In this document: positions 2,058 through 46,965 of the stretch, one piece after another | Layout of the letters: each line of letters begins with the position of its first letter | Numbering within the stretch: the first letter of the stretch is position 1 | Origin: Candidatus Acidiferrales bacterium | GTDB taxonomy: Bacteria > Acidobacteriota > Terriglobia > Acidiferrales > UBA7541 | Length of the DNA stretch: 64,000 bases | Reading direction: 5' to 3' | Assembly: GCA_049678505.1 (NCBI GenBank) | Contig: JBAUEH010000111.1 | Coordinates: 3,626 to 67,625, forward strand | Translations under genes and position numbers: made by a program | The notes under the pieces: generated by a model | Databases searched by the model: none | Told to the model about the DNA's origin: nothing | The model's input: only the letters and a program-made list of their open reading frames with translations

Positions 2058-4166
2058 CTATCCCACTGCGGCCAGCCGGAACTTGTTTTGCCACTCCGGC
2101 CCCAGAAATGTCGTGAGCTTTGCCAGTTCGGGCGAACGCGAACGGTCTTCCACAAGCGCAAAAGCCTCGGCTCGCGCCAGATCCAAGAGCTTGTGGTCGC
2201 GCAGCGGATGCGCCATATGAAATGCCACATCTCCATGCTGCTTTGTGCCGAAAAATTCTCCCGGCCCTCGAAGCTTCAGGTCCTGTTCGGCAATCTGAAA
2301 CCCGTCGGCTGTTGCGACTAGTGTTTCGAGCCGGGCGCGCGCTTCTTCCGTTACGTTCTTTGGGGCCACCAGAATGCAGTGTGATTTGTGCGCGCCTCGC
2401 CCGATGCGTCCGCGAAGCTGATGAAGCTGCGCCAAGCCAAATCGGTCGGCGTGCTCGATCACCATCACGGTCGCATTGCGCACGTCGACGCCAACTTCTA
2501 CGACAGTCGTTGCTACAAGAACCTGAATTTTTCCGCTGCGAAACTGCTCCATCACGTCGTCTTTTTCTTCGCTGCGCATGCGCCCGTGCAGCAGCCCGGC
2601 GTGCAGCTTCGGGAAAACGTTTTTTGAGAGGCGCTCGTACTCGGCCGTCGCCGCTTTTAATTCCTGCTTCGATTCTTCGACCACCGGATAAATGATGTAG
2701 GCTTGCCGGCCGCTGGAAACTTCGCGTCGCACGAACTCCCAAACTCCCGGAAGAGTTTCTTCCGCGCCCCAGCGCGTTTCTACGGGCGTCCTCCCCGGCG
2801 GCATCTCGTCGATGATCGACAGATCGAGATCGCCATAGAGCGTGAGCGCGAGAGTGCGCGGAATCGGCGTCGCTGTCATCACCAGCACATGCGGCGCTTT
2901 TCCCTTTTCTGTCAGGCGCTTGCGTTGCAGCACGCCGAAGCGATGCTGCTCGTCGATGATTACCAGCCCCAGCTTCGCGAAATTCACCACATCTTCAATC
3001 AGCGCATGCGTGCCGGTGACGAAGTTCGCTTGACCCGAGGCGATGCGCGCCAGCGCTTCTTCTTTTTCGCGCGGCTTCATTCCACTGACGAGCAGCTCCA
3101 CGGAATAGCTCGCGGAAGAAAATATTCTCCGCGCGGATAAATAATGCTGCACGGCGAGAATTTCCGTCGGCGCCATGAGCACCACCTGATAGCCGTTTTC
3201 GATGACGATTGCCGCCGCTTCGAGCGCCACAATCGTTTTTCCGCTACCGACGTCGCCCTCGAGCAGGCGAGTCATGGGCATCGCACGTTCGAGATCCGCC
3301 GCGATTTCAGCGAGCACGCGCTTTTGCGCGGCGGTCGGCTTGAACGGCAGGATTTGTTTCAGCGCTTCGCGAACTTTATCCTGGCGCACTAGCATCGGAA
3401 TTCCGGCCTGTTGCTGTTCGCGCTGCCGGCGAATCGCCAGGCCAAGCTGGTAGAGAAAAAACTCTTCGAAAATCATCCGCACCTGCGTCGGACTGCGGAA
3501 TTCGTTCAGCAGCCCGACATCGGCGTCACGCTCAGGGAAGTGCACGCGCAAGAGAGCTTCGCGCTTGGACGGGAATCCGAAACGCTGCAAAAGTTCCGGC
3601 GGCAGCGGATCTGGAATTTCTCCCTGAAAATCTTCTACGACTCTGAAAATAATCCGGCGCAGCATTCGCGAGCTGATGTCGCTGATGGCTTCGTACACCG
3701 GAACAATGCGCCCCACTTCCGCGGAGTCCATTGCGTCGTCGCCGGGATGAAGCAATTCGAATTCCGGATTGATCATTTCGATGCGCATCGGACGGTTCGG
3801 ATCGGCGCTGACTTTGCCGTGCAGGACCAGCGGCTGGCCGGGCTTCAATTTTCCGTCGAGGTAGGCTCCGTGGAAAAAGCGCACGGCGAGCTTGCCGCTG
3901 GCATCTTTCACGCTCAGATGAAACATGGCGTTGCGGCGGCCCCTGAAACGGACGAGGCTTCCGCTCTCAACTTCGACTCTCACGGTCGCCACCTGCCCGG
4001 GCGTAAGTTCCGCTACGTTCGTGAAATGGATGCGATCTTCGTAACGAAAGGGCAGGTAGTTGAGGAGGTGGCCGACGGTGGTGATGCCGCGCTCGGCGAG
4101 CAGGGCGGCGCGGTGAGGGCCGAGGCCCTTCATGGTGGTAACTGGCGAGTTCGAGGCTAAGGGCAT
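2058..4166 (-). CDS. recG: ATP-dependent DNA helicase RecG
   Basis: 702 aa. An OB/wedge-type N-terminus is followed by SF2 helicase motifs GDVGSGKT, IIDEQHRFGV, MTATPIPRTL and QLHQLRGRIGRG. Confidence 0.95.
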   Translation of the reverse strand: MPLASNSPVTTMKGLGPHRAALLAERGITTVGHLLNYLPFRYEDRIHFTNVAELTPGQVATVRVEVESGSLVRFRGRRNAMFHLSVKDASGKLAVRFFHGAYLDGKLKPGQPLVLHGKVSADPNRPMRIEMINPEFELLHPGDDAMDSAEVGRIVPVYEAISDISSRMLRRIIFRVVEDFQGEIPDPLPPELLQRFGFPSKREALLRVHFPERDADVGLLNEFRSPTQVRMIFEEFFLYQLGLAIRRQREQQQAGIPMLVRQDKVREALKQILPFKPTAAQKRVLAEIAADLERAMPMTRLLEGDVGSGKTIVALEAAAIVIENGYQVVLMAPTEILAVQHYLSARRIFSSASYSVELLVSGMKPREKEEALARIASGQANFVTGTHALIEDVVNFAKLGLVIIDEQHRFGVLQRKRLTEKGKAPHVLVMTATPIPRTLALTLYGDLDLSIIDEMPPGRTPVETRWGAEETLPGVWEFVRREVSSGRQAYIIYPVVEESKQELKAATAEYERLSKNVFPKLHAGLLHGRMRSEEKDDVMEQFRSGKIQVLVATTVVEVGVDVRNATVMVIEHADRFGLAQLHQLRGRIGRGAHKSHCILVAPKNVTEEARARLETLVATADGFQIAEQDLKLRGPGEFFGTKQHGDVAFHMAHPLRDHKLLDLARAEAFALVEDRSRSPELAKLTTFLGPEWQNKFRLAAVG

Positions 4167-4767: not shown

Positions 4768-5406
4768 ATGAACGCCATGGGGATGAGCGCCGCGCTCGAA
4801 CGAGGGGCAGCGCAACGCGCAGTGCAGAAAGCGGACGAACAGGTCCTAGTCCGGCAGGCGCAAGCGGGCAATCGGCCGGCTTTTGAGGAACTAGTGCGCC
4901 GGTACGACCGTGACGTGCTGCGCCTGGCGCTGAACCTGGTGCGCGGCACGGAGGACGCTCGCGACCTTTACCAGGAAATTTTTCTTCGCGTGTACCGTAA
5001 CCTTTCGCGTTTCCGTTTCGAGTGCAGTTTTTATACATGGATCTATCGCATCGCCACGAATGTGTGCCTGGACCATCTGCGGCGCAAGAACACGCGGCGT
5101 GAGGAGCAGGCGCCGCAGCCCGCTGACAGCGAGGGCGTTGCGCCCGATTTCTTCGACCAGCAAGTGGAGCATCGAGCGGCGGCCAATCCGGAGCGGCAAT
5201 TTCTGGGTCAGGAACTTGGGAAGCATATCGACGCGGCGCTCGACGGGCTTTCGGCACGGGAGCGCATGGTTTTTGAACTGAAGCATTACGAAGGGCTGAG
5301 ATTGCGAGTGATCGGGGACATGCTGGGCACTTCGGAGGAAACAGTAAAGAATTCGCTGTTCCGCGCGACGCGGAAATTGCGCGCCACACTGGACGGCATG
5401 AGATGA
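4768..5406 (+). CDS. ECF (sigma-70 family) RNA polymerase sigma factor
   Basis: Region 2 (AFEELVRRYDRDVLRLALNLV...DLYQEIFLRVYRNLSRF) and region 4 (RERMVFELKHYEGLRLRVIGDMLGTSEETVKNSLFRATRKLR) are present. The track ORF starts at 4687. I chose ATG 4768 to give a typical ECF length, and the start remains uncertain. Confidence 0.85.
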   Translation: MNAMGMSAALERGAAQRAVQKADEQVLVRQAQAGNRPAFEELVRRYDRDVLRLALNLVRGTEDARDLYQEIFLRVYRNLSRFRFECSFYTWIYRIATNVCLDHLRRKNTRREEQAPQPADSEGVAPDFFDQQVEHRAAANPERQFLGQELGKHIDAALDGLSARERMVFELKHYEGLRLRVIGDMLGTSEETVKNSLFRATRKLRATLDGMR

Positions 5407-5421
5407 AGCAAGGAGCTAACA

Positions 5422-6429
5422 ATGCAGGAATTTAGCCAACCCTCCGGGGCATGTCCGGAGTTCGAACCAAACATCATCCTTTATGCGGTGGATGAGCTGG
5501 AAGGCTCGGAACGCGATTCCCTGGAAGAGCATCTTGACCAATGCGCGCGCTGCGTCGCGGCGCTGGATGTGGAGCGGAAATTACTCGAGATGGCCGCCGC
5601 TCACCGGCGGCTCGAACCCACGGCGGGCCTGCTGGCAAGTTGCCGCAACCGGTTCGAGGATTCGCTCGATGAGATGGACCATCGCAGCATTTTCGTGCGT
5701 TGGGCGGAGTCACTTTTTCCCGCGCACTGGCTGGCGCTGCATCCGGCAGCCAGCGTCGCCACTTTGCTGCTGGTGGGCTTCTCCGTAGGAATGCTGGGGC
5801 CTTGGCATTCGCAGGCGCCAAACGCGCCTTTGCCCCGGCCAACCGCAGTATTGGGTTCGATGGGTTTGGATAATCAGGAGCTGCAATCCGCGAATGTTTC
5901 GGGAATCAACTGGACGCCGAGCAATGACAGCCGTCCGCCGCAGATCGAAGTTCAGATGAATACGGAGCGTCCAATGGTTGTGCAGGGAACGGTGAACGAC
6001 GACGAGGTGAAGCGTGTGCTTCTCTACGTCCTTCACAATAATCATCGGTTCTGCCCAGACGTTCGCATTAACGCAGTGGAGTTGCTGAAAGCGCGCGCGA
6101 ACGATCCGGATGTAGAGCGTGCGCTTTCCCAGGCGGTGCTCACCGATCGCAATCCGGCGGTGCGATTGAAAGCGCTGGACGCGCTGACGGTGGCAAAGCC
6201 GGACGACGCCAGCGTGCAAACGATGCTGGAGGCGCTGACGAAAGACGCAAATATCGGCGTGCGCGTGGAGGCGATCAATGCGCTGCTCATTGCTTCGGAA
6301 CGCGGAGGGCTGCTTGCCGATCCGAAGGCACTCGGCATTCTGCGCGACCGGATGCGCACGGATCCGAATACGTATATTCGTTTACAAAGCGCGGCGGCCG
6401 TTCAGCAAGCGCAGCCGAACCAGCAGTAG
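5422..6429 (+). CDS. anti-sigma factor with an N-terminal zf-HC2, one TM helix and C-terminal HEAT-like repeats
   Basis: An H-x3-C-x2-C motif (EEHLDQCARCVAAL) is followed by the TM helix AASVATLLLVGFSVGMLGPW. The C-terminal half has repeated units such as DVRINAVELL, NPAVRLKALDAL, NIGVRVEAINAL and NTYIRLQSAAAV. AAGGAG lies upstream of the ATG. The gene sits immediately downstream of the sigma gene. Confidence 0.75.
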   Translation: MQEFSQPSGACPEFEPNIILYAVDELEGSERDSLEEHLDQCARCVAALDVERKLLEMAAAHRRLEPTAGLLASCRNRFEDSLDEMDHRSIFVRWAESLFPAHWLALHPAASVATLLLVGFSVGMLGPWHSQAPNAPLPRPTAVLGSMGLDNQELQSANVSGINWTPSNDSRPPQIEVQMNTERPMVVQGTVNDDEVKRVLLYVLHNNHRFCPDVRINAVELLKARANDPDVERALSQAVLTDRNPAVRLKALDALTVAKPDDASVQTMLEALTKDANIGVRVEAINALLIASERGGLLADPKALGILRDRMRTDPNTYIRLQSAAAVQQAQPNQQ

Positions 6430-36183: not shown

Positions 36184-39129
36184 TCAAGGCACCGGCCGGA
36201 AACCTGCGGACGACCCTCCCGCATAGATTGGCTTTCCTGTCTTCGGACTCCGCTGCACGACGTGCGGCGTCAACAGGATCAGCAATTCGGTGCTGCTGTT
36301 CTGCGTGTTGGAAGCACTTGCCGCCAGCGCCAGCGGTCCCAGTGCTTCCGCTCCGGGCGTCCCATTAATGGCCTGCATCTCCGTGGATTCGATGATCCCC
36401 GCGAGCGCTGTTGTTTGCTCCGCCTTGGTGCTAACCGTTTGTTCCACGGTCTCGTTGCTAATCACCGGGATTTCATTCACGGTGCTGCCGGTGAGGCTTC
36501 GCAGCTCGAAATGCAAGTCCAACGTGACATTTCCACCCGCCTGAATGTACGGCGTAGCTTTGATTTTCAATCCAATGTCTTCATACTCTGCAGAGGGATA
36601 AGGAGTCGACGCCACGCCGGTTCCGTTCGGGCTGAACGTTGCATTGTCCAGGATGATGGTCAGCTCATTCGCCGTTGAATTGGCGATCGCCAAGCCTGGT
36701 GGACTGGTAGTGCCCAGAAAATCGGCTGAAACGAGTCCCACAGGAGCGCTGCCCGCCGGTAAAATGAGCGGTGTCGCGAAAGTCCCGTCTCCGTTTCCTA
36801 TGAGAATGGACACGGTGTCTGCGTCTTGGTCCGTCACCGCCAGGTCCGGCAGCCCGTCCACGTTGAAATCTCCCTCGGTGATCGCGACGGGTTTGTTCCC
36901 GGCTGCAGATGCATTGTTCAGCACGAATGTTTCCCCCTGCGTGAACGTGCCGTCGCCGTTGCCCAAGTAAACCAAAAGGGTGTCGTCCGTCTGATTCACC
37001 ATCGCCAGATCGATGTTCGTGCTGTTATCCAAATCGAACTGCCCTGCGGCAATGGCCACGGGAGTGTTTCCTGTGACCAGTGTGGTTAAGTTTATGAACG
37101 TGCCATTCCCATTGCCTAGGAAGACTGAAACCGTGTTCGCCGTTTGGTTCGTTACCGCAAGATCGAGTTTGCCATCGTTGTTGAAGTCAGCCGTCGCAAT
37201 CGCTGAGGGTGCCGCGCCGGTGGTAAACTTCGCTTGCGGTTGGAACGTGCCATCTCCATTGCCCAGCAAAATCGAAACAGTGTTGTCTGTTTGATTGACC
37301 ACCGCCAAATCGATGTATCCGTCGTCGTTGAAATCCCCGGACACAATCGCCACCGGATTCTTCCCTGTCGCGAACGTGCCTTTCAGCGTAAATGTCCCGT
37401 CACCATTGCCCAAGAAAATTGAAACCGTATTGTCTGTCTGATTGACAACCGCTAGGTCCGGAATGCCGTCACCATTGAAGTCGGCGGTCACCGCAGCTAT
37501 CGGTCCTTGCCCCGTTGCCAGGGTCCCGTTGCTGTTGAACGTCCCATTCCCGTTGCCCAACAAAATGGAAACTGTGTTATCCGTATGATTCACCACCGCC
37601 AAGTCGACATTTCCATCCCCATTGAAATCCGCCGTGATGACGGCGACGGGATCCTGTCCCGTCGCGACCGTCGACTCGGGAAAGAGGCTCGATGAAACTG
37701 CCGAAATGAAACCCGGTGAGGTTAAGCTTGAGGAATACTGCGCCAGATCGATCGGCACACGTTCGCCTGCAAAAAAGGTGGTTGGTTTGCCATCTTCCGC
37801 GCGCAACACCACACGGCGTCCGGTCCGCACCGTATTTAGCATGTCGGAAAACGCCGCTGCGGCCCCAGGCAGCGTCGCCAGGAACGTTGTTTTGCCTCCG
37901 CCAAAAGCCACCAGCGGCGGTATCAGCGAGCCAATGCCTACCGTTCCTTCTCCAATTAGTGATGCCAATTGCGTCGTGCTCACTCCTGATAAGCTGCTCC
38001 CTGTTCCGAATAGTTGCTGGATCACGGAAACCAGTCCCGCTGCTCCTTGTTGCGCTTCCTGAATCTGCTGCGAGCTCAGCGTGAAGGCCTGCGCTGTCTG
38101 CGGGGGCGTGATGCCGAGCTGCGTGGCCGCATTGCGGTCCACTTCCAGTATTTCCATTTCAAGTACCACTTCGCCATGCGGCTGCTCTAATTGATCCAGC
38201 AACTGCGCCGCCACGGAAATCGCTTGCGGCGAAGCGCGCATGGTTATCGTTCGACTCGCCAGATTCAACTCGGCGCGGTTAATCCCTGCTATCTCGCGCA
38301 CCGTGCGGACCTCCTGCGTCATTTCATCGTTTGAGTCCGCCGCCGGCAATTGCACCGTGCGCACAACCGAGAGGTCATAGGCCCGTCTCTTCTCCGGCGT
38401 ATCAGCGGCAACGAAGAACAACCGTGACGTTAGCGGCCGCCAGAAACTTCCGGTCATGTCTCCCAACACTCGCATGGCCGTCTCGAAATCCACATTCTCA
38501 ATCCTCAGGTGAACCGCTCTCGATTGCAGGTCCACATCGAACGAAGCCTCCACGCCAAATTCGCGCGCCACCTCTTCGTACGCGCTCGCCGTATCGCCGT
38601 GAAAGTCGAAGCTTTTCGTGCCCGTTAGCGGTTTCAAACGCACTACGCCTGCCGGTTCCAGCATCAATGTTCGCAGCGTTTCCGCCGACGAAGGCGCCAG
38701 TTGCGCCAGCCGCTCGCGCACGATTTCGTCGCCTGGATCGAGCACTAGCGCCGCGTGCAGTTCATGGCGCGCTTCGGCCATGCTGCCCATCAGCGCGTCT
38801 TGCTCGGCGCGATCAACCTCTTCGCCCACGACCTTGCCCCGCGCGATTTCGCGCCGCAGCAAATATTCGTGACTCGTCGAATCCTGCCGGACGGCTTCCG
38901 AATACGCCGCGAACGCCAGCAGCCAATTTGCTTCCTTCTCTGCCTTCAATCCTCTCTGGTATGCAGCCTTTGCCTGCTTCGCATCCTGCGGCTTATTCGT
39001 CACGCTTTTCGCGGACGGCGCCTGCTGGCCCGCTGGAGCAGGCTTCGCCGGCGTCGGCGTTTGCGCGTTGGTAACGGCCGCAGCGCAAAGAAAAAGTGCA
39101 ATGAGTATGTTCGAGCGCAAGGAAATCAA
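36184..39129 (-). CDS. secretin-family outer-membrane channel protein with an inserted seven-repeat FG-GAP/VCBS-like module
   Basis: 981 aa. Signal peptide, a TPR-like helical region, secretin-N-like domains, and the start of the secretin domain (VVLEMEILEVDRNAATQLGI ... VVLRAEDGKPTTFFAGERVPI). Seven FG-GAP-like repeats follow. Then comes the secretin end (YEDIGLKIKATPYIQAGGNVTLDLHFELRSL ... IPVISNETVEQTVS ... ELLILLTPHVV). Confidence 0.8.
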   Translation of the reverse strand: MISLRSNILIALFLCAAAVTNAQTPTPAKPAPAGQQAPSAKSVTNKPQDAKQAKAAYQRGLKAEKEANWLLAFAAYSEAVRQDSTSHEYLLRREIARGKVVGEEVDRAEQDALMGSMAEARHELHAALVLDPGDEIVRERLAQLAPSSAETLRTLMLEPAGVVRLKPLTGTKSFDFHGDTASAYEEVAREFGVEASFDVDLQSRAVHLRIENVDFETAMRVLGDMTGSFWRPLTSRLFFVAADTPEKRRAYDLSVVRTVQLPAADSNDEMTQEVRTVREIAGINRAELNLASRTITMRASPQAISVAAQLLDQLEQPHGEVVLEMEILEVDRNAATQLGITPPQTAQAFTLSSQQIQEAQQGAAGLVSVIQQLFGTGSSLSGVSTTQLASLIGEGTVGIGSLIPPLVAFGGGKTTFLATLPGAAAAFSDMLNTVRTGRRVVLRAEDGKPTTFFAGERVPIDLAQYSSSLTSPGFISAVSSSLFPESTVATGQDPVAVITADFNGDGNVDLAVVNHTDNTVSILLGNGNGTFNSNGTLATGQGPIAAVTADFNGDGIPDLAVVNQTDNTVSIFLGNGDGTFTLKGTFATGKNPVAIVSGDFNDDGYIDLAVVNQTDNTVSILLGNGDGTFQPQAKFTTGAAPSAIATADFNNDGKLDLAVTNQTANTVSVFLGNGNGTFINLTTLVTGNTPVAIAAGQFDLDNSTNIDLAMVNQTDDTLLVYLGNGDGTFTQGETFVLNNASAAGNKPVAITEGDFNVDGLPDLAVTDQDADTVSILIGNGDGTFATPLILPAGSAPVGLVSADFLGTTSPPGLAIANSTANELTIILDNATFSPNGTGVASTPYPSAEYEDIGLKIKATPYIQAGGNVTLDLHFELRSLTGSTVNEIPVISNETVEQTVSTKAEQTTALAGIIESTEMQAINGTPGAEALGPLALAASASNTQNSSTELLILLTPHVVQRSPKTGKPIYAGGSSAGFRPVP
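36625..37677 (-). repeat. seven tandem ~49-codon FG-GAP-like coding repeats inside the secretin gene
   Basis: Consensus TG..P.A....DFNGDG..DLAV.NQTDNTVSI.LGNGDGTF. Five copies are very regular and two are degenerate. Confidence 0.8.
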
Positions 39130-39270: not shown

Positions 39271-39299
39271 TTGCTTCTGGCGCTTCCTCGGGGTACACT
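39271..39299 (+). promoter_or_regulatory. putative promoter of the FTR1 cluster
   Basis: TTGCTT (39271-39276), a 17-nt spacer, and TACACT (39294-39299). Confidence 0.35.
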
Positions 39300-39306
39300 C
39301 GAATTT

Positions 39307-39331
39307 CTAGTTGATACATAGTGTCAACTAG
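39307..39331. promoter_or_regulatory. 25-bp near-perfect palindrome (candidate operator) at the predicted transcription start
   Basis: CTAGTTGATAC-ATA-GTGTCAACTAG has 11-bp arms with one G:T position. It begins about 8 nt after the -10. Confidence 0.45.
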
Positions 39332-39347
39332 CTGGGATTACCGATCC

Positions 39348-40610
39348 ATGCTTTCTGCTCTCTTAATCGCTCTCCGTGAAGGCGTCGAGGCCGCCCTTGT
39401 TGTCGGCATCGTCCTAGTTTATCTCAATCGCACTGGTCGTCGCGCGCTGGCTCGTTATGTATGGGTAGGTGTCGCTCTTGCGGTCGTCGTTAGCTTCGCG
39501 GCAGCCGTCCTGCTTCAGCGCTGGCAGATCAGCGAAGACGGCTTTGAGGGCATCCTCATGCTCTTGGCCGCGGTCCTCGTTGTTTCCATGATCGTCTGGA
39601 TGAACCGCGTCGCCCGCCGCTTGCGCAAGGAGATCGAGCAGCGCATCGAGCGTTATGCGCAACAGAGCGAGCGCTTTGCGGGTTGGGGAATCGGCTTTTT
39701 CGTTTTTCTGATGGTTCTTCGCGAAGGCGCCGAACTCATCCTGATTCTGCGCGCTGTGGAGCTGTCCATCGCCGGCCTGCAAGTTTGGATCGGCACGGGC
39801 GTGGGCATCACGCTCGCCGTGGCCGTGGGAGTCTTTTTCTTTCAGGGCACTTTGAAAGTGCCTCTCAGCCGTTTCTTTGCCGCGACCAGCATCATCCTGA
39901 TGGTCGTGGCTTTCCAGCTTGCCCTCACCGGCCTTCACGAAATGAGCGAGGCGCTCTGGCTGCCTTCGAGCGCCCGCGAAATGGCCACCGTGGGCCCTAT
40001 CGTTCGTAATGAATACTTCTTTTTCGTCGTTATTTTGGCGGTGACCGCCATCGTTGTTCTTCGCGAATGGTTCGCGCTCCGCGCCGCTGCGGCGAACTCC
40101 ATCGAGAATCCCGCCGAAAAGCGTCTTCGCCAATATGAACATCGCCGCCGTAGCATCTGGACCGCCGCGACGGCATTTCTCTGCCTGGTGGTCATTCTTT
40201 CCTTGACCGCTGAATTCGTCTACACACGCGCATCGGCTGCTCCGCCCGAAGCTGAAAAACTCGTTGCTGCGGGAAACATTGTCCGCATTCCGGTGGCGGA
40301 GATGAACGGCGTGGATCTTCATTTCTACGCCATGGATGTGCAGGGCTCGTCGGTTCGGTTCCTGGTGATCCGCAAGCCCAACGGCCAGTATGCCACCGCG
40401 CTCGATGCCTGCCAGATTTGCGGCGCCATGGGTTTTCGTCAGGAAGGTTCGATGCTGATTTGCCGCAATTGCGGCGCGCCGATTAATGCCGTCGAAGTCG
40501 GCATGCCCGGCGGCTGCAATCCCATCGCCTTCCCGTCACACGTGGACGGCGCGAACATCGTCATCGACGTCTCCGCGATCTCCGCCGCTGTTTCGGAAAT
40601 TAAGAAATGA
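39348..40610 (+). CDS. FTR1-family iron permease fused to a C-terminal four-Cys DUF2318-like domain
   Basis: REGVE (MLSALLIALREGVEAAL) and REGAE (MVLREGAELILIL) permease motifs and multiple TM helices. The C-terminal soluble domain carries ACQICG...CRNCG. The start was set at ATG 39348 because this N-terminus resembles E. coli EfeU as I recall it (MFVPFLIMLREGLEAAL). GTG 39321 is also in frame. Confidence 0.8.
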   Translation: MLSALLIALREGVEAALVVGIVLVYLNRTGRRALARYVWVGVALAVVVSFAAAVLLQRWQISEDGFEGILMLLAAVLVVSMIVWMNRVARRLRKEIEQRIERYAQQSERFAGWGIGFFVFLMVLREGAELILILRAVELSIAGLQVWIGTGVGITLAVAVGVFFFQGTLKVPLSRFFAATSIILMVVAFQLALTGLHEMSEALWLPSSAREMATVGPIVRNEYFFFVVILAVTAIVVLREWFALRAAAANSIENPAEKRLRQYEHRRRSIWTAATAFLCLVVILSLTAEFVYTRASAAPPEAEKLVAAGNIVRIPVAEMNGVDLHFYAMDVQGSSVRFLVIRKPNGQYATALDACQICGAMGFRQEGSMLICRNCGAPINAVEVGMPGGCNPIAFPSHVDGANIVIDVSAISAAVSEIKK

Positions 40611-40628
40611 AAGCTCGCCGAAAATAGG

Positions 40629-41927
40629 ATGTTCATTCGCCTCCTTAAGGAATCGCTTATCCGCAATCCGCGCCGTAAGCTCCTCACCGGCATAGCACTC
40701 GTTTTGGGCATGGCCGTTGCCACGGCGACATTCACGGTCGCCGTCGACGTCGGTGACCAACTCGCTCGCGAGTTCCGCAGCTTTGGCGCTAACCTCCTGG
40801 TTACGCCGCAAGACGATACGTTGCCCGTCGAAATCGGCGGTGTCGATTATCGCCCGGTCACGCAAGGCGCCTATCTTTCGGTCTCGGTATTGCCCAAGCT
40901 CAAATCGATTTTCTGGCGCCACAACATCCTCGGCTTCACGCCTTTCCTCGACGTTCCGGTCGCGGTCGCAACCTCCACTGGCAGCGCTTCCGGTAAAACT
41001 TTTTCTGCCACTCTTATCGGCACTTGGTACAAGCACTCCGTCGCCGTGGAAGACGGCTCGACGTTCGTTACGGGTGCCAGCTCCACGCATCCGTGGTGGA
41101 AAATTCGAGGTCAATGGTTCACGGAAGATTCTCCGCAGTGTGTCGTCGGCGCTTCGCTGGCAGGAAAATACGGGATCACCGTTGGCAGCGTTCTGAATCT
41201 GTCCGCGGCGAACTCAAATGTCGCCACGGCTGTAACTGTCACGGGCGTGGTCTCCACTGGCGACTCGCAAGACGACGCAATTCTTTGTCCTCTATCCATC
41301 GCGCAGAATCTCGCCGGCAAGCCCGGCCAGTTCCGCAGTCTTTTCATCAGCGCGCTCACCAAGCCAGAGGACAGCTTCTCCCGCCGTGATCCCAACACGA
41401 TGAGTCCCACCGAATTTGATCGCTGGTACTGCACGCCGTATATCAGTTCCATCAGTCACCAGATTCAGCAAGTTTTCCCCGGCACGCAAGTGCGACCCAT
41501 CCGCCGCGTTGCGGATACCGAAGGCCGCGTTCTTTCTCAGGTCAGCTTGCTGCTTTGGATCGTCACGATTGCCGCACTCATCGCCGCCGCGCTTGCCGTT
41601 GCCGCTACCTCCGCCACAACCGCCATGGAACGCCGCTCGGAAGTCGGCTTGATGAAGGCTCTCGGAGCCACGAATTTTCTCGTGAGCGGCTTGTTCTTTT
41701 CCGAGCAACTTTTTCTTGCCATCGTCGGCGGCTGCATTGGCTTCGCGCTCGGCGCGGGGCTGGCTCGCGAACTTGGTGAAACAGTCTTCGGCGTCGCCAC
41801 GTCTCCTCGGCTGATTGTCTTGCCCGTAATTCTCGCGGCCGCGACGCTAGTCGCCATTGTGGGCAGCTGGATTCCTCTTTATCGCGCCGCGCACATTTCT
41901 CCCGCTCCAATTCTGAGGGGAGAATAA
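40629..41927 (+). CDS. FtsX/MacB-type ABC transporter permease
   Basis: 432 aa. TM1, a ~250-aa extracytoplasmic domain, then three C-terminal TM helices carrying the FtsX signature region (RRSEVGLMKALGATN). Confidence 0.8.
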   Translation: MFIRLLKESLIRNPRRKLLTGIALVLGMAVATATFTVAVDVGDQLAREFRSFGANLLVTPQDDTLPVEIGGVDYRPVTQGAYLSVSVLPKLKSIFWRHNILGFTPFLDVPVAVATSTGSASGKTFSATLIGTWYKHSVAVEDGSTFVTGASSTHPWWKIRGQWFTEDSPQCVVGASLAGKYGITVGSVLNLSAANSNVATAVTVTGVVSTGDSQDDAILCPLSIAQNLAGKPGQFRSLFISALTKPEDSFSRRDPNTMSPTEFDRWYCTPYISSISHQIQQVFPGTQVRPIRRVADTEGRVLSQVSLLLWIVTIAALIAAALAVAATSATTAMERRSEVGLMKALGATNFLVSGLFFSEQLFLAIVGGCIGFALGAGLARELGETVFGVATSPRLIVLPVILAAATLVAIVGSWIPLYRAAHISPAPILRGE

Positions 41928-43063
41928 TGTTCAAACGCCTTCTTCTGCATTTGCTTCGTGGAAATCGCGTGCGCCTGACCGTCGCGTTGCTCGCGCTCAC
42001 TAGCGGCGCCACGGTTGTTTCCGCGCTCATGAATCTCGACGTCGATATCAATCGTAAACTCGCGCAGGAATTTCGCTCCCTCGGCGCGAATCTCGTCGTC
42101 TCTGCGCCATCCTCGATAGCGTCGAATACAGCTTCTTCCGCGTTGTTCGACGCTTCCGCCATGCGAGCCGTCGACTCGCTGCAATCATCCGGCGTCGTCG
42201 CGTCTCCCTATCTTTACCTAGTTGCGCGCACCGGCTCCACTCCCGGTCGCGAGGTCGTGGTCGCTGGCGCGTGGCTCGATCGCATCGCTCAAATGTCTCC
42301 CTGGTGGCAAATCGCGGGCGACTCATCTGTTTCGCGCACCGACCCTTCGCATTGCCTAATCGGACGCAACGTCAGCCGTAGCCTCGCCCTTTCCACCGGC
42401 GGCACATTTGCGCTCAGTTACGAAAGTCGCACCGCGAATCTCATCATCGCGGGCATCGTCGACGCCGGCGGCCCCGAAGACAATCAGATCTTCGTGAACC
42501 TGCCCGTCGCTCAGACGCTCGCCGGGGCTGCTGGCAAAGTCCAGCTCGTCCAGCTCAGTGTTCCCGGTTCACCCGACGAGGTTCGCACCGTGCAATCTCA
42601 TCTGCAATCCGTGCTCCCTGCTCTCCTCGTCAAGCCCATTCCGCAAATCACCGAGGCGGAAGGCAAGCTGCTCCGCCGCATTCGTTTTTTAATTTTTTCA
42701 ACGGGCCTGCTCATCTTGGTGCTCACTGCGCTCTGCCTCGTGGCCACCATGGCTGCGCTTGCCATGGAACGCCGCAAAGATGTCGGCTTGATGAAAGCCC
42801 TCGGCGGTTCCATGCAAAAGGTGCTTCGAATTTTTCTGGCCGAAGTCGGCATCATGGCGTTCGCCGGAGGGATTCTCGGGTATGGTTTTGGCATGCTGCT
42901 TTCCGTTTGGATGGGATACCGCGTTTTCGGGGCGAGTATCACGCCGCGTTGGGAAGTGCTTCCGGCAACCTTGGTTCTGATGCTCTTCGTCGCGTTTGCC
43001 GGCGCGCTCCCTTTGCGGCTGCTGGGCAACGTTCGCCCGGCCGTTATTTTGCGTGGAGAATAA
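41927..43063 (+). CDS. FtsX/MacB-type ABC transporter permease (second copy)
   Basis: 378 aa with the same architecture (RRKDVGLMKALGGSM). The start overlaps the previous stop. Confidence 0.8.
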   Translation: MFKRLLLHLLRGNRVRLTVALLALTSGATVVSALMNLDVDINRKLAQEFRSLGANLVVSAPSSIASNTASSALFDASAMRAVDSLQSSGVVASPYLYLVARTGSTPGREVVVAGAWLDRIAQMSPWWQIAGDSSVSRTDPSHCLIGRNVSRSLALSTGGTFALSYESRTANLIIAGIVDAGGPEDNQIFVNLPVAQTLAGAAGKVQLVQLSVPGSPDEVRTVQSHLQSVLPALLVKPIPQITEAEGKLLRRIRFLIFSTGLLILVLTALCLVATMAALAMERRKDVGLMKALGGSMQKVLRIFLAEVGIMAFAGGILGYGFGMLLSVWMGYRVFGASITPRWEVLPATLVLMLFVAFAGALPLRLLGNVRPAVILRGE

Positions 43064-43067
43064 GAAA

Positions 43068-44135
43068 GTGCCGCTTGTTGAAGTTGCGAACTTGAAAAAA
43101 TCTTTCGGCGAAGTCCGCGCGCTCAATGGTGTTTCCTTTTCCGTCGAAGCCGGCGAATGGATCGCCATCATGGGGCCCTCGGGCTCCGGCAAGACCACGC
43201 TCATCAATATTCTTGGCGGCCTGGACACTCCCACGGAAGGCAGCGCCCTCGTCGATGGCGTCGACGTTGGCCGGCTCAACGAATTCGGCCTCACGCGCTT
43301 TCGCGCCGAGAAAATCGGCTTCGTCTTCCAGCAATTCCATCTCGTGCCGTACCTCAGCGCACTCGAAAACGTTATGCTCGCCCAATATTTCCACAGCACC
43401 ACGGACGAATCGGAGGCCGCCACAGCACTGCGCCGCGTTGGCCTCGGCGACCGCCTCACGCATCTTCCCTCGCAGCTCTCCGGAGGAGAACAGCAGCGCG
43501 TAGCTGTCGCTCGCGCGCTGATCAATCATCCCAAGCTGATTCTCGCCGACGAGCCCACGGGCAACCTCGACGAAGCCAACGAAGAGACCGTCATTCACCT
43601 TCTTCGCGAGCTCCATGGCGAAGGTCATACGATCTTCATGGTCACGCACGATCCATCCATTGGCAGCCTCGCCGACCGTCGCGTTGAGCTCGCCCACGGT
43701 CGTCTTGCGCAAATCACGATCTACTCCGCTGAGGACGAAGCCCGTTTCGATCACGTCCTCGAGGAGCTCTGGCTCTGCGCGGAGATTGGCAAGCGCGCCA
43801 AGCTGGCGCGTTTCCATTCGCTCGACCCTGACCCGGAACGCACCATTCAACGCCTCTCCGTTGTCGGCCTCGTGAGTTTGCAGGACTCCGAAGTCGAGTT
43901 GACCGATCGCGGTCAGCGCCGCGCTCGCGGCGTCGTGCGCCGGCGCCGTCTCGCCGAGCGCCTGTTCACGGATACGTTTTCCATCGCGAACGCCGAAGCC
44001 GATTCGCAAGCCTGCAAGTTCGAGCACATCATTAGCCCGGAACTCGACGAACGCATCTGCTCTTTCCTCGGCCATCCGAAGACCTGCCCTCACGGCAAAC
44101 CCATCCCTCCAGGCCCCTGCTGTCCCTCGAAATAA
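43068..44135 (+). CDS. ABC transporter ATP-binding protein fused to a DtxR/MntR-like (wHTH plus metal-binding dimerisation) module
   Basis: Walker A GPSGSGKT, signature [15 protein letters not shown], Walker B [12 protein letters not shown], H-loop VTHD. The C-terminal ~135 aa contain [12 protein letters not shown]...ACKFEHIIS...[8 protein letters not shown]. GTG 43068 lies 4 nt after the upstream stop, and the track start at 42996 overlaps the permease. Confidence 0.8.
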   Translation: [355 protein letters not shown]

Positions 44136-44245
44136 TTTGTCTGGAAAGCCGTGGCATCTGGGTTTTGTCACGATCGGCCCGGCGTGTGAACGGCGTTAGG
44201 ATAGGCTAGAATGAGTGGTCCGACACGATAGCTCCGACCAGTTTG

Positions 44246-44632
44246 ATGCCACTCCCCCTCGACATTCGCAAGAAGCCCATCGACGTCAAGGTTCACATCT
44301 CGACGGATGCTGGCGTTGACATCACCTGGTCAGACGCGCACACCAGTCACTACGACTTTCCCTATCTTCGCGAACATTGCCCTTGTGCCACATGCAGAGA
44401 AACGCATGACAAGCATGCTGAGGTCGATGCGAAGACAGCCGGTGGATCCTCGGCACTTCCCATGTTCAAGCCCAAGATAACTGCTCGCGCCGCGGCGACG
44501 GTAGGGAACTACGCCGTTCAAATCGAATTCACCGACGGCCATTCTACGGGCATCTATAGCTTCGACCACCTCCGTGAAATCTGTCCTTGCGAAGCTTGCG
44601 CCCGCGAATTTCGAGCGTTTCACACGGGGTAA
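44246..44632 (+). CDS. DUF971 (gamma-butyrobetaine hydroxylase N-terminal-like) protein
   Basis: Two half-repeats: ITWSDAHTSHYDFPYLREHCPCATC and IEFTDGHSTGIYSFDHLREICPCEAC. Confidence 0.75.
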   Translation: MPLPLDIRKKPIDVKVHISTDAGVDITWSDAHTSHYDFPYLREHCPCATCRETHDKHAEVDAKTAGGSSALPMFKPKITARAAATVGNYAVQIEFTDGHSTGIYSFDHLREICPCEACAREFRAFHTG

Positions 44633-44709
44633 CTCCTGCGATTTCTGTTTCCTGCTGACTATTTATTTTTCTCGCCAAACACCGTATAGTCACTTCCCAC
44701 GTCGTTTTC

Positions 44710-46965
44710 ATGGCTTCCAATCCTTTAAATCCCGGTTCGCAGCGTCCCGTTGCCAACGTGCTCGTCGCCACCACGGCGATGCTCAGTTTTATTTCTTTCT
44801 GGCGCGCCGGGGCCATCGTTCTCAACGACCTCGCCTCCTCCGCCTATTACGCTGGCGGTGAAGCCGAGCAGTTCATAGGTAAGTCCGCGCCCTGGTTCAT
44901 TCTCGGGGTTATGCTGCTTGCGTACGCGGTCTCTTTGATCTACGTCGAGAGCTGCAGCATGTTCGTTCGCGGCGGCGTTTATCGCGTCGTGAAGGAAGCC
45001 ATGGGCGGCACGCTCGCCAAATTTTCCGTCTCTGCCCTGATGTTCGACTACATCCTAACTGGCCCCATTAGCGGTGTCGCCGCAGGCCAGTACATCGCGG
45101 GCTTGGGCAACGAACTCCTCCACTACGCCCACATTCACCTTTCCCTGCACGTAAATGCCACTGCGGCAGCTATTGCGATCCTCGTCACCGTTTATTTCTG
45201 GTGGCAAAACGTCAAAGGTATTCCGGAATCAAGCGAAAAAGCTCTGCGCATCATGGAACTCACCACCGTCATGGTGGTAGTTCTCATCGTTTGGTGCGTT
45301 TACACCATTTGGGTACGCGGTGTTCACTGGCCGCCCGCGCCGGTTGCTCGCAATGTGGTTCTCGACAAACATTCTCTCGGTTGGCTCACGAATTTCCGCT
45401 GGGCTCACGCGCTTACCCTGGTAATCATTTTTGTCGGCCTGGGCCATTCTGTTCTGGCCATGAGCGGCGAAGAGACCCTCGCTCAGGTTTACCGCGAAAT
45501 TGAGCACCCCAAGCTCCCCAACCTCAAGAAAACGGCTCTCATCATTTTCATTTATAGCCTGCTCTTCACCGCGCTGGTTTCCTTTTTCGCGGTCATGATT
45601 ATTCCCGACCACATCCGCCCGCACTTCTTCGAAAATCTCATCGGCGGCCTTGCCATGAGTTTGCAAGGCCCCTTCGGGCTTCGCCTGGCTTTTCATGTTT
45701 TTGTCGTCATCGTGGGCATGCTGATTCTTTCTGGCGCGGTCAATACCGCCATCGTTGGCTCCAATGGGGTCCTCAGCCGTGTCTCGGAAGATGGTGTTCT
45801 CACCGATTGGTTTCGCCATCCGCATCGCCGGTTCGGCACATCTCATCGCATCATTACCTCCGTTGCCGTCCTTCAAATCATCACGATTCTTATCAGCCGC
45901 GGAGACGTAGATTTCCTCGGCAACCTCTACGCCTTCGGGGTTATTTGGAGTTTTGCACTAAAAGGAATTGCCGTCCTCGTTCTCCGCTACACGCATCCGC
46001 AAGACCGCGAATATCGCGTACCTCTGAATTTCACGATTGCTGGCAAGGAAATTCCTGTGGGGCTCGCTCTCATCACCCTCGTTCTTTTGCTTATTGCGGT
46101 CGTCAACTTGTTCACTAAGCCCGACGCCACCATCGCTGGCGTTGTCTTCTCCGGACTTCTCTTCATCGGGTTTACTCTGTCAGAACGAAGCGTTCGCCGC
46201 CGCGTAGGCAGCACCCAGGCAGCCGAACTTGACCAGTTCAATCTTGCCGAGGAGGCCGATCTATCTCCGGCAAGCGTGGGCGTGCGTCCAGGCAATGTGC
46301 TTGTGCCGGTGAGCAACTACTACGCGCTCTATCATCTTCATTCCGCCCTGGAACGTCTCAAAGCGAACGAGCAGGACGTTGTCGTGCTCCACATTCGTTT
46401 GCTGCGCCGCGCCGCATCGGGAGAATACGACCTCCGTCCCGATCAACTTTTCAGCACCATCGAGCAGCTGCTGTTCACAAAAGTTCTGGCCATCGCTGAA
46501 AAAGAAGGCAAGCCCGTGCGCCTCGCCGTCGCCGCTGCCAACGACCTCTGGGACGGCATTTTGCGCGCCGGCGCGAATCTGCAATCCAGCAGCATCATCG
46601 TTGGCAGCTCCTCGAAAATGCCCATCAACGAGCAAGCGCGTGAAGTCGGCCTTGCCTGGGAGCGCATGCTGGAGCCTCGTCCCCGTCTCGCTCTCGATAT
46701 TTTTACCCCCGGCGGACAGGAACGCATTTTCTACCTCGGGCCGCATGCACCTCATCTCACACCCAAGGAAATCGATCTTCTCCACAATGTCTGGCTTCAG
46801 TTAGGCAACGATCTACCGGGTGAGGACTTGCACCATCATGACATCATCCATTTTGCTTTGACCGAACTCACCCGCGAGATGTCTCAGGACCAGGGCAACG
46901 GCGTGCTCGACCGTCTCCGCGAGCATCTTCGCGAGATCAAAGACCGGCGCCCGCCCACGCCATAG
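44710..46965 (+). CDS. APC-superfamily amino-acid permease fused to a C-terminal universal-stress-protein-like domain
   Basis: About 12 TM helices in the first ~480 aa. A USP-like alpha/beta region follows (NVLVPVSNYYALYHL...VVVLHIRLL...PVRLAVAAANDLWDGILRAGANLQSSSIIVGSS). Confidence 0.75.
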   Translation: MASNPLNPGSQRPVANVLVATTAMLSFISFWRAGAIVLNDLASSAYYAGGEAEQFIGKSAPWFILGVMLLAYAVSLIYVESCSMFVRGGVYRVVKEAMGGTLAKFSVSALMFDYILTGPISGVAAGQYIAGLGNELLHYAHIHLSLHVNATAAAIAILVTVYFWWQNVKGIPESSEKALRIMELTTVMVVVLIVWCVYTIWVRGVHWPPAPVARNVVLDKHSLGWLTNFRWAHALTLVIIFVGLGHSVLAMSGEETLAQVYREIEHPKLPNLKKTALIIFIYSLLFTALVSFFAVMIIPDHIRPHFFENLIGGLAMSLQGPFGLRLAFHVFVVIVGMLILSGAVNTAIVGSNGVLSRVSEDGVLTDWFRHPHRRFGTSHRIITSVAVLQIITILISRGDVDFLGNLYAFGVIWSFALKGIAVLVLRYTHPQDREYRVPLNFTIAGKEIPVGLALITLVLLLIAVVNLFTKPDATIAGVVFSGLLFIGFTLSERSVRRRVGSTQAAELDQFNLAEEADLSPASVGVRPGNVLVPVSNYYALYHLHSALERLKANEQDVVVLHIRLLRRAASGEYDLRPDQLFSTIEQLLFTKVLAIAEKEGKPVRLAVAAANDLWDGILRAGANLQSSSIIVGSSSKMPINEQAREVGLAWERMLEPRPRLALDIFTPGGQERIFYLGPHAPHLTPKEIDLLHNVWLQLGNDLPGEDLHHHDIIHFALTELTREMSQDQGNGVLDRLREHLREIKDRRPPTP

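Follow-up and report, generated by a model that had tools for sequence, protein, structure and literature searches.

Bacterial metal uptake is usually described as being transcriptionally controlled by Fur or DtxR, and to our knowledge rapid post-translational switching-off has been described for just a handful of ABC importers, the methionine, molybdate, and maltose systems among them. An iron-regulated cluster of Campylobacter jejuni, with a Fur-type box ahead of it, encodes cFtr1-P19 and DUF2318 along with two FtsX permeases, an ABC ATPase, and thioredoxins, and its genes fetA to fetD are each required for growth under iron limitation (PMC6083913, PMC10783030). Here, we examined a comparable operon in a 64-kb stretch of DNA (64,000 nucleotides, hereafter the window) from a Candidatus Acidiferrales bacterium (assembly GCA_049678505.1, contig JBAUEH010000111.1), in which the gene for the ABC ATPase, at 43068-44135(+), runs on into a module resembling the metalloregulator DtxR. 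An earlier note on this DNA had described this ATPase and offered two readings, in which cytosolic Fe or Mn gates transport directly or the ATPase doubles as a DNA-binding repressor. We lean, with somewhat better than even confidence, toward a module that regulates the ATPase from its C-terminus, gating it in response to cytosolic Fe2+, and that is not the repressor of the operon.

The palindrome-bearing operon and the ATPase-DtxR open reading frame (ORF) were read within the window, and residue numbers refer to the ORF product. By translation, this is a single uninterrupted ORF of 355 aa with no internal stop; it starts at a GTG, which lies 4 nt beyond where the upstream FtsX gene stops and 9 nt beyond a GGAG. 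Its parts are as follows.

43068..43709, + strand: ABC ATPase domain of the MacB/LolD/FtsE type, residues 1-214, with Walker A, signature, Walker B, and H-loop all present
43728..43904, + strand: DtxR-like domain 1, residues 221-279, with helix 1 (H229, E232), helix-turn-helix (HTH), and wing; the least conserved segment
43905..44078, + strand: DtxR-like domain 2, for dimerization and metal binding, residues 280-337, with R293/E297/D312 and C316/E319/H320; Fe_dep_repr_C
44079..44135, + strand: Cys/His tail and stop codon; C340, H342, C351, and C352 invariant, as are C331 and H336 just upstream

The ATPase half was recognized by ABC_tran (PF00005, Pfam) at residues 19-164, with 3e-36 and 125 bits against a cutoff of 25, and its translation contains the LSGGQ signature and VTHD. 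The nearest curated families in NCBIfam are LolD, MacB, FtsE, and YbbA, and all NCBIfam equivalogs fell under their cutoffs (the best, LolD, at 213 bits versus 307.75). Judged by these scores, the ATPase is a lineage separate from the named orthologous groups, without a curated model. The best solved relatives of this nucleotide-binding domain (NBD) were the MacB NBD, LolD, MJ0796, YbbA, and FtsE (Foldseek, phmmer). Two partner genes, both encoding FtsX + MacB_PCD proteins, lie directly upstream of the ATPase and are kept in all related loci.

The rest of the protein has a DtxR-type fold. Fe_dep_repr_C (PF02742, Pfam) matched residues 279-347 with 6e-26 and 90.7 bits against a cutoff of 27, and the C-terminal 141 aa aligned to residues 27-133 of IdeR/DtxR with E values from 6e-18, to IdeR, to 5e-14. 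The earlier note had looked to both DtxR-family profiles for recognition of the module, and only one of them delivered it: the profile of the winged helix-turn-helix (wHTH), PF01325 (Fe_dep_repress), gave no match on the module even at E<=10, and the wHTH was visible only by pairwise alignment (IdeR 27-72) and by fold comparison with DtxR domain 1. An AlphaFold model of the module (pLDDT 80, pTM 0.72) contains a long helix 1, the helix-turn-helix, a beta-hairpin wing, and three more helices, with helices 221-239, 246-251, and 256-265 and strands 269-272 and 275-278 making up domain 1. This model superimposed on domains 1 and 2 of DtxR/IdeR with TM 0.69-0.75 (rmsd 1.7 Å over 113 residues versus 1F5T), and its top PDB matches were IdeR and DtxR, many of them DNA-bound. 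The chain ends at residue 355, with no SH3-like or FeoA third domain. Among 1.84 billion representative proteins searched, stand-alone DtxR-family proteins matched the module nearly end to end, from module positions 8-14 to 139 against their residues ~2-135, at 37-50% identity. The earlier note was thus right that an ABC ATPase and a complete two-domain DtxR-like module share one ORF, and all of the motifs that it quoted, PGPCCPSK included, were found.

To place the fusion among related genomes, we used a set of 45 sequences, made up of the window and 44 public acidobacterial assemblies. The latter comprise L001, L002, and 42 loci from a scan of one genome per species whose matches run right across the NBD-module junction. 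These 42 loci are nearly all from Acidobacteriota; the two domains were in one ORF in every one, and the synteny was fixed. Likewise, the best 120 database clusters, 72-94% identical, all carried both Pfam domains, and their names were those of ABC ATPases only, from Candidatus Acidoferrales/Acidiferrales metagenome-assembled genomes. A missed stop or frameshift dividing two genes, which the earlier note had named as a danger, is ruled out by the continuous ORF in the window and in all 44 public assemblies. Two seemingly separate regulators of 132-134 aa (P0133, P0165) proved to sit inside intact fusion ORFs, as gene-calling artifacts, and the source assembly of P0235 has broken gene calls. 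In L001 (8001-8399) and L002 (8001-8405), an annotated "metal-dependent transcriptional regulator" begins at an internal Met, with the ATPase half left uncalled; such miscalled records will distort domain-architecture counts. More distant fusions are P0297 (Polarisedimenticolia), P0367/P0387, and P0242.

Among stand-alone proteins, the module is most closely related to Fe_dep_repr_C+FeoA proteins whose genes directly follow feoB (L003 468-3338; L068 4032-7531), in the order fur-feoB-dtxR/feoA in Anaeromyxobacter (L068). Because these relatives adjoin feoB, the gene neighborhoods suggest that the entire DtxR subfamily operates alongside Fe2+ transporters.

We then compared the metal ligands. 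In the primary site, C316/E319/H320 correspond to C102/E105/H106 of DtxR, and H229 aligns with Met10; at the ancillary site, the window has R293 (His79), D312 (His98), and E297 (E83). These equivalences confirm for the window what the earlier note had given, namely a retained C-x-x-E-H, a His at Met10, and Arg and Asp at His79 and His98. Both ancillary positions are His in 28 of the 45 sequences and Arg/Asp in 9. H229, C316, E319, and H320 are invariant in 45/45, as are C331, H336, C340, H342, C351, and C352. Across a wider count of 144 fusion proteins, C316, E319, and H320 are present in 142, all six of the latter Cys/His residues are kept in 144, and the primary ligands and tail Cys/His positions overall are kept in 138-144. 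Guedon and Helmann reportedly described, in 2003, a Cys at the C102 position as an Fe-type signature (DtxR/IdeR), with Glu there in the Mn-sensing MntR; the Cys at this position therefore points to a site of the Fe2+ type and away from one of the Mn2+ type.

The Cys-rich tail to which the earlier note had drawn attention is present but is not peculiar to this ATPase, since it also occurs in ~96-100% of the stand-alone relatives and is a hallmark of the DtxR subfamily, the stand-alone Feo-linked proteins included. Its CPHG aligns with the CPHG of SloR and ScaR, where the Cys and His bind metal together with a Glu of the RLxE helix and an Asp of the FeoA domain. By analogy, the terminal CC may complete a second metal site in place of the lacking FeoA domain. 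The tail was modeled with low confidence (pLDDT 40-49).

Conservation along the protein, taken as the mean frequency of the commonest residue in the 45 sequences, was 0.83 for the NBD, 0.79 for helix 1, 0.83 for alpha-4, 0.84 for the metal/dimer region, and 0.93 for the tail. Values were low in the HTH, at 0.41 for helix 2, 0.51 for the turn, 0.54 for the recognition helix (helix 3), where conservation is confined to R258 (69%) and R262 (98%), and 0.57 for the wing. Five positions that we take, from IdeR/DtxR-DNA structures, to contact DNA in IdeR (S37, T40, S42, R50, and R60) are occupied by L, D, E, V, and S in the aligned module. The net charge of the HTH, compared by hand, did not differ from that of IdeR and was not used as evidence.

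A domain of this kind could also hold the NBDs together without sensing anything, as a constitutive dimerization or latch domain with a structural metal, for example Zn in the Cys/His tail. C-terminal domains of many ABC ATPases are mainly dimerization platforms; the tail is the most conserved segment and resembles structural Zn sites, and P0367/P0387, which have H/D/Y in place of C316/E319/H320, yet keep the Cys/His tail. The near-universal H229, C316, E319, and H320, however, are ligands of a regulatory type that a structural role would not need. NBDs of the MacB/LolD/FtsE type, moreover, normally have no need of an extra dimerization domain, and sister operons without the fusion exist. We regard a pure latch as quite unlikely.

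A sub-clade of 14 of the 45 sequences (L011, L018, L026, L028-L031, L034-L037, and L044-L046) carries an insertion of 9-10 aa in the H2-H3 turn of the HTH. The same sequences have a further insertion, of 21-25 aa, in the linker between NBD and module, with the motif HGPxHPLxCPLxxTxDCC; absent from the window, it resembles a second copy of the C-terminal GHPxTCPHGxPIPPGxCC tail (an H..HP..CP..DCC repeat).

Next, we considered the operon in which the fusion lies. Apart from the ATPase gene, its elements in the window are as follows.

39271..39299, + strand: putative operon promoter, with -35 TTGCTT at 39271-39276, a 17-nt spacer, and -10 TACACT at 39294-39299
39307..39331, no strand: palindromic operator CTAGTTGATACATAGTGTCAACTAG, core AGTTG-N11-CAACT at 39309-39329, between the -10 element and the start codon
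39348..40610, + strand: FTR1 iron permease fused to an FtrD-like (DUF2318) Cys-rich domain; FTR1 1.9e-38 and FtrD-like 1.1e-27 (Pfam), EfeU/Ftr1 (NCBIfam)
40629..41927, + strand: FtsX/MacB-type permease 1 with periplasmic MacB_PCD domain; FtsX 4.6e-14, MacB_PCD 1e-10 (Pfam)
41927..43063, + strand: FtsX/MacB-type permease 2; FtsX 3.7e-12, MacB_PCD 3.9e-7 (Pfam)
44243..44632, + strand: small Cys-rich DUF971 (GBBH-like_N) protein, the last cluster member; 3.9e-25 (Pfam)

The gene order is a divergent 981-aa gene, FTR1-FtrD, FtsX, FtsX, ATPase-DtxR, DUF971, and usually an amino-acid permease. The probable start of FTR1 is the ATG at 39348 (MLSALLIALREGVEA...), picked by the REGVE motif and by homologs. 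DUF971 lies downstream of the ATPase in nearly all related loci, in about one-third of them 2-15 nt past its stop. A second conserved operator, sought in the spacer of 2-321 nt between the ATPase and DUF971, was not found.

Alternatively, the module might accept iron leaving FTR1 at the membrane and hand it on, or form an Fe-S unit that reports Fe-S status by a cluster held at C331, C340, C351, and C352, perhaps with DUF971. Its four invariant Cys and two invariant His would suit either role, as would the duplicated H..HP..CP..DCC motif in the linker of 14 of the 45 sequences; the adjacent DUF971 gene is translationally coupled in about one-third of loci, and the FtrD-like and DUF971 domains both have Cys motifs. 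Against this, the tail is modeled with low confidence, and the Cys and His of CPHG align with mononuclear metal ligands in ScaR/SloR-type regulators. Where this tail occurs in stand-alone relatives, the proteins resemble ordinary DtxR-family members with FeoA domains. An acceptor or Fe-S role thus seems to us very unlikely.

In front of the operon, TTGAC-N17-TA(g/a/c)ACT recurs at a constant distance from the palindrome in the aligned upstream regions of more than 40 related loci. Because a sigma-70 consensus scan of the window called no promoter at its threshold, the promoter is assigned from cross-species conservation only. The palindrome CTAGTTGATACATAGTGTCAACTAG, which the earlier note had placed correctly at 39307-39331, matches once in the window and once per related locus, and extra direct copies of it occur among related loci. 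A family consensus, GTAGTTGCAAATcAtTTtCAACTGG, stands at the same position in ~40 related loci, abutting GGAG; the copy in the window, AGTTGATACATAGTGTCAACT, is the most diverged, with the lowest of 42 training-site scores. The general form of the box is AGTTGCAAAT-n-ATTTGCAACT. An RNA hairpin was rejected as the main interpretation, given that the outer arms, 5 bp each, show sequence conservation with no covariation and that the inner arms frequently lack complementarity (e.g., AGTTGCAAATCAATAACAACT); a protein-binding site fits the pattern better. At 12 of 15 positions, the family core TGCAAAT-c-ATTTTCA matches the Fur 7-1-7 sequence TGATAAT-n-ATTATCA, and the palindrome fits the TG-N11-CA pattern noted for Fur-like boxes (PMC1698941). 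A literature search for the box sequence found no sequence match.

The same box was surveyed by an exact-pattern scan of metagenome contigs, from which 80 loci were listed. About 30 of these are the FTR1 operon itself. Elsewhere, the box occurs 4-18 nt upstream of Nramp genes (L111, L153, and L107), upstream of TonB-receptor-like barrels (L166, L096, and L140, with a second copy in L166 and L140), and upstream of ZnuA (L156) and ZrgA (L158). In two loci, L096 and L107, a FUR-domain gene and its divergent neighbor flank the box; the Fur of L096 shares 84-97% identity with proteins of Sulfotelmatobacter and Terriglobales (Acidobacteriota). As a separate observation, low-GC (0.21-0.34) metagenome contigs of moss and peat origin also bear the palindrome, many with one or more near-identical further copies (L088, L095, L105, L108, L113, L114, L118, L137, L142, L146, L154, L161, and L163); these copies are flanked by inverted "catatgggataaac" and look like a repeated element.

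Two loci have lost the module. The ATPases of L150, at 4868-5542(-), and L159, at 3110-3793(-), are 224 and 227 aa long and end right after the NBD, with no DtxR-like sequence anywhere in the locus sequence analyzed. Because their NBDs are 78-87% identical to those of fused neighbors, the comparison indicates that the module is lost secondarily here, and by the same sequence comparison it is an accessory to the operon. Both loci keep the box before FTR1, with the DUF971 gene 76-93 nt after the ATPase; that gene is thus kept even in operons that lost the module. These operons are natural built-in controls for functional tests.

Because of the metal-uptake and fur contexts, together with the retention of the box in module-less operons, we assign the box to a Fur-family regulator: most likely, the palindrome is a Fur-family-type box and not the target of the fused module. 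The palindrome as a private operator of the fusion is ruled out by its wider, regulon-like spread and by the module-less operons.

These observations bear directly on the second reading of the earlier note, in which the membrane-bound ATPase would be bifunctional, an iron-dependent autorepressor of its own operon acting at the 39307-39331 palindrome or at another site. Such a protein would account for the retention of a full wHTH fold, for the conservation of R258 and R262 in the recognition helix, which extends to the stand-alone relatives, and for a conserved palindrome over the promoter of a cluster that has no other transcription-factor gene; no fur gene was found in the 64-kb window or in the fusion loci. 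In addition, the distant locus L085 differs in both its HTH and its promoter palindrome. However, the palindrome is the Fur-type box that precedes Nramp, TonB-receptor-like, ZnuA, and ZrgA genes and adjoins fur genes, and L150 and L159 keep it without the module. No part of the protein is less conserved than the HTH, whereas the half-sites of the box hardly vary, and the sub-clade with 9-10 additional aa between H2 and H3 has the same box. The replaced IdeR contact positions and the scoreless PF01325 also speak against DNA reading, as does the bulky NBD, which is attached only a few residues from helix 1, a helix whose N-terminus in DtxR is near the DNA. Of the two readings in the earlier note, gating of transport by Fe/Mn therefore fits the evidence best, and repression at the palindrome is unsupported, given the Fur-type box, the module-less operons, and the drifting HTH. 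We consider autorepression unlikely.

The low-GC locus L085 (4969-9071, P0387) also stands apart in other respects. It has one FtsX gene and not two, its promoter palindrome is ATTGTGA-n6-TCACAAT, and its neighbors are a redoxin gene upstream and a TetR gene with a row of heme-biosynthesis genes downstream.

Taken with the above, we propose the following for gating by iron. A DtxR-type protein, probably once encoded beside or within an iron-transport operon, like its Feo-linked relatives today, would have become the C-terminal domain of the ATPase, which as subunit of a MacB/FtsX-type ABC complex would work with the FTR1-FtrD iron permease. Its metal sites and dimer interface would have been kept under strong selection, and its DNA-reading surface would have drifted, probably with loss of DNA binding. 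Two modules would dimerize beneath the NBD dimer. Rising cytosolic Fe2+ would then bind at a site formed by H229 and E232 of helix 1 and C316, E319, and H320 of domain 2, with a probable second metal site at E297, C340, H342, and the C-terminal CC. In the full-length model, the linker between NBD and module is short, with an NBD strand at 212-218 followed by a helix at 221-239; because helix 1 follows the NBD strand so closely, metal binding could tie the NBD rigidly to the dimerized domain 2. By clamping the NBD-module junction and fixing NBD geometry, bound metal would lower ATP hydrolysis, and iron uptake would drop, so that the transported metal would trans-inhibit its own uptake in a manner analogous to MetN, ModC, and MalK. 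Gating of the ATPase would be expected to gate uptake because the homologous C. jejuni genes fetB, fetC, and fetD are each needed for growth under iron limitation. Operon transcription would be under a different control, that of a Fur-family repressor acting on the promoter palindrome.

Several observations weigh against this proposal. Trans-inhibition is known from type I ABC importers that carry NIL or TOBE domains and not from MacB-type systems. Every lineage has kept the full wHTH fold, which has no obvious use in a pure sensor, and R258 and R262 stay conserved in the recognition helix. In the lineage of the window, the ancillary histidines are replaced by R293 and D312. The full-length model is of moderate quality (pLDDT 72.7, pTM 0.51), which limits what it can say on the coupling geometry, and a fold search with it returned NBD matches only. 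Finally, the substrate moved by the MacB-type complex in FTR1 systems is unexplained (PMC6083913, PMC10783030).

We give a small chance to a more elaborate arrangement, in which a sensor derived from a transcription factor gates the transporter, possibly via an Fe-S cluster or multi-iron site, or in which a DNA-binding transporter-repressor hybrid cooperates or competes with Fur at its own promoter.

The genes flanking the cluster are also conserved. At 44710-46965, a 751-aa protein of the amino-acid-permease family (AA_permease_2 at residues 28-472) has a C-terminal extension of ~280 aa without a family match, and it is conserved downstream in most related loci. The 981-aa gene at 36184-39129(-), divergent from the operon, keeps its position across the clade and shares its intergenic region with the Fur-type box; its counterpart in L001 has TPR, FG-GAP, and Secretin matches.

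With respect to novelty, no paper, solved structure, or curated family describing an ABC-DtxR fusion was found, and, in line with the earlier note, our literature searches gave no characterized ATPase with a DtxR fold. The combination of ABC and DtxR domains has already been recorded by automatic annotation. An ABC ATPase with a C-terminal ligand-sensing domain is known; what sets this one apart is the transcription-factor fold, the MacB-type system, and the proposed sensing of metal. If the proposal is true, this would be a clear natural case of a transcription-factor sensor reused as an allosteric domain, and iron entry would be under two-tier control, by Fur at the promoter and by iron at the ATPase. 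It would also give experimental access to the MacB-type ABC component of FTR1/P19 systems, so far unexplained: should iron binding halt ATP turnover, iron flux and the ATPase step would be directly coupled. Soil and peat Acidobacteria, in which the family is abundant, are genetically difficult, and biochemistry on recombinant protein is the realistic route. The box, for its part, is a ready-made matrix for mapping acidobacterial metal regulons.

Among known systems, C. jejuni fetMP-fetABCDEF likewise clusters FTR1, a DUF2318/FtrD-like domain, two FtsX permeases, and an ABC ATPase; the operon described here is an acidobacterial relative of it, with a gene set that matches fetM, fetA, and fetBCD. 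In contrast to C. jejuni, FTR1 and the FtrD-like domain are a single protein and a DUF971 gene follows, and a scan of six ORFs spanning the cluster and its downstream side (39321-46965) showed neither the P19/FetP nor the thioredoxin (FetE/F) family. The counterpart of FetD here carries the DtxR module; PMC6083913 and PMC10783030 mention none for FetD.

As in MetN (C2/NIL), ModC, and MalK (TOBE-type), the additional domain, residues 215-355 here, comes directly after the NBD, and in our proposal it would similarly dimerize under the NBD dimer, sense a cytosolic nutrient, and lower ATPase activity. The parallel that the earlier note had drawn with these proteins does not extend to the transporter, which is a MacB/FtsX-type (type VII) complex here and not a type I importer. 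The fold is also different, being the DtxR wHTH and dimerization fold and not NIL, ACT, or TOBE, and the ligand is predicted to be a metal ion held by His, Cys, and Glu.

The module shares with DtxR (C. diphtheriae) and IdeR (M. tuberculosis) the two-domain fold (TM ~0.7), the C102/E105/H106 ligands, the RRHRLAERL helix, and the PxGxPIP loop. It differs from them in its place behind an ATPase, in having no SH3-like third domain, and in the exchange of Met10 for His and, in the window, of His79/His98 for Arg/Asp. It differs further in an HTH that is poorly conserved and to which PF01325 is blind, in the additional Cys/His tail, and in that no DtxR-type operator (TTAGGTTAGCCTAACCTAA) is present. 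The CPHG motif of the tail is shared with ScaR/SloR/MtsR-type regulators, and C-x4-H-x3-C-x-H-x8-CC with the Feo-linked Fe_dep_repr_C+FeoA proteins; unlike the module, ScaR/SloR and the Feo-linked proteins stand alone and have a FeoA/SH3 domain that supplies a further ligand. Lastly, the palindrome resembles Fur/Mur/Zur 7-1-7 boxes in its TG-N11-CA spacing, in overlapping the promoter, and in preceding metal-uptake and fur genes, whereas its strongly conserved outer AGTTG/CAACT arms and TGCA flavor set it apart from the E. coli Fur consensus.

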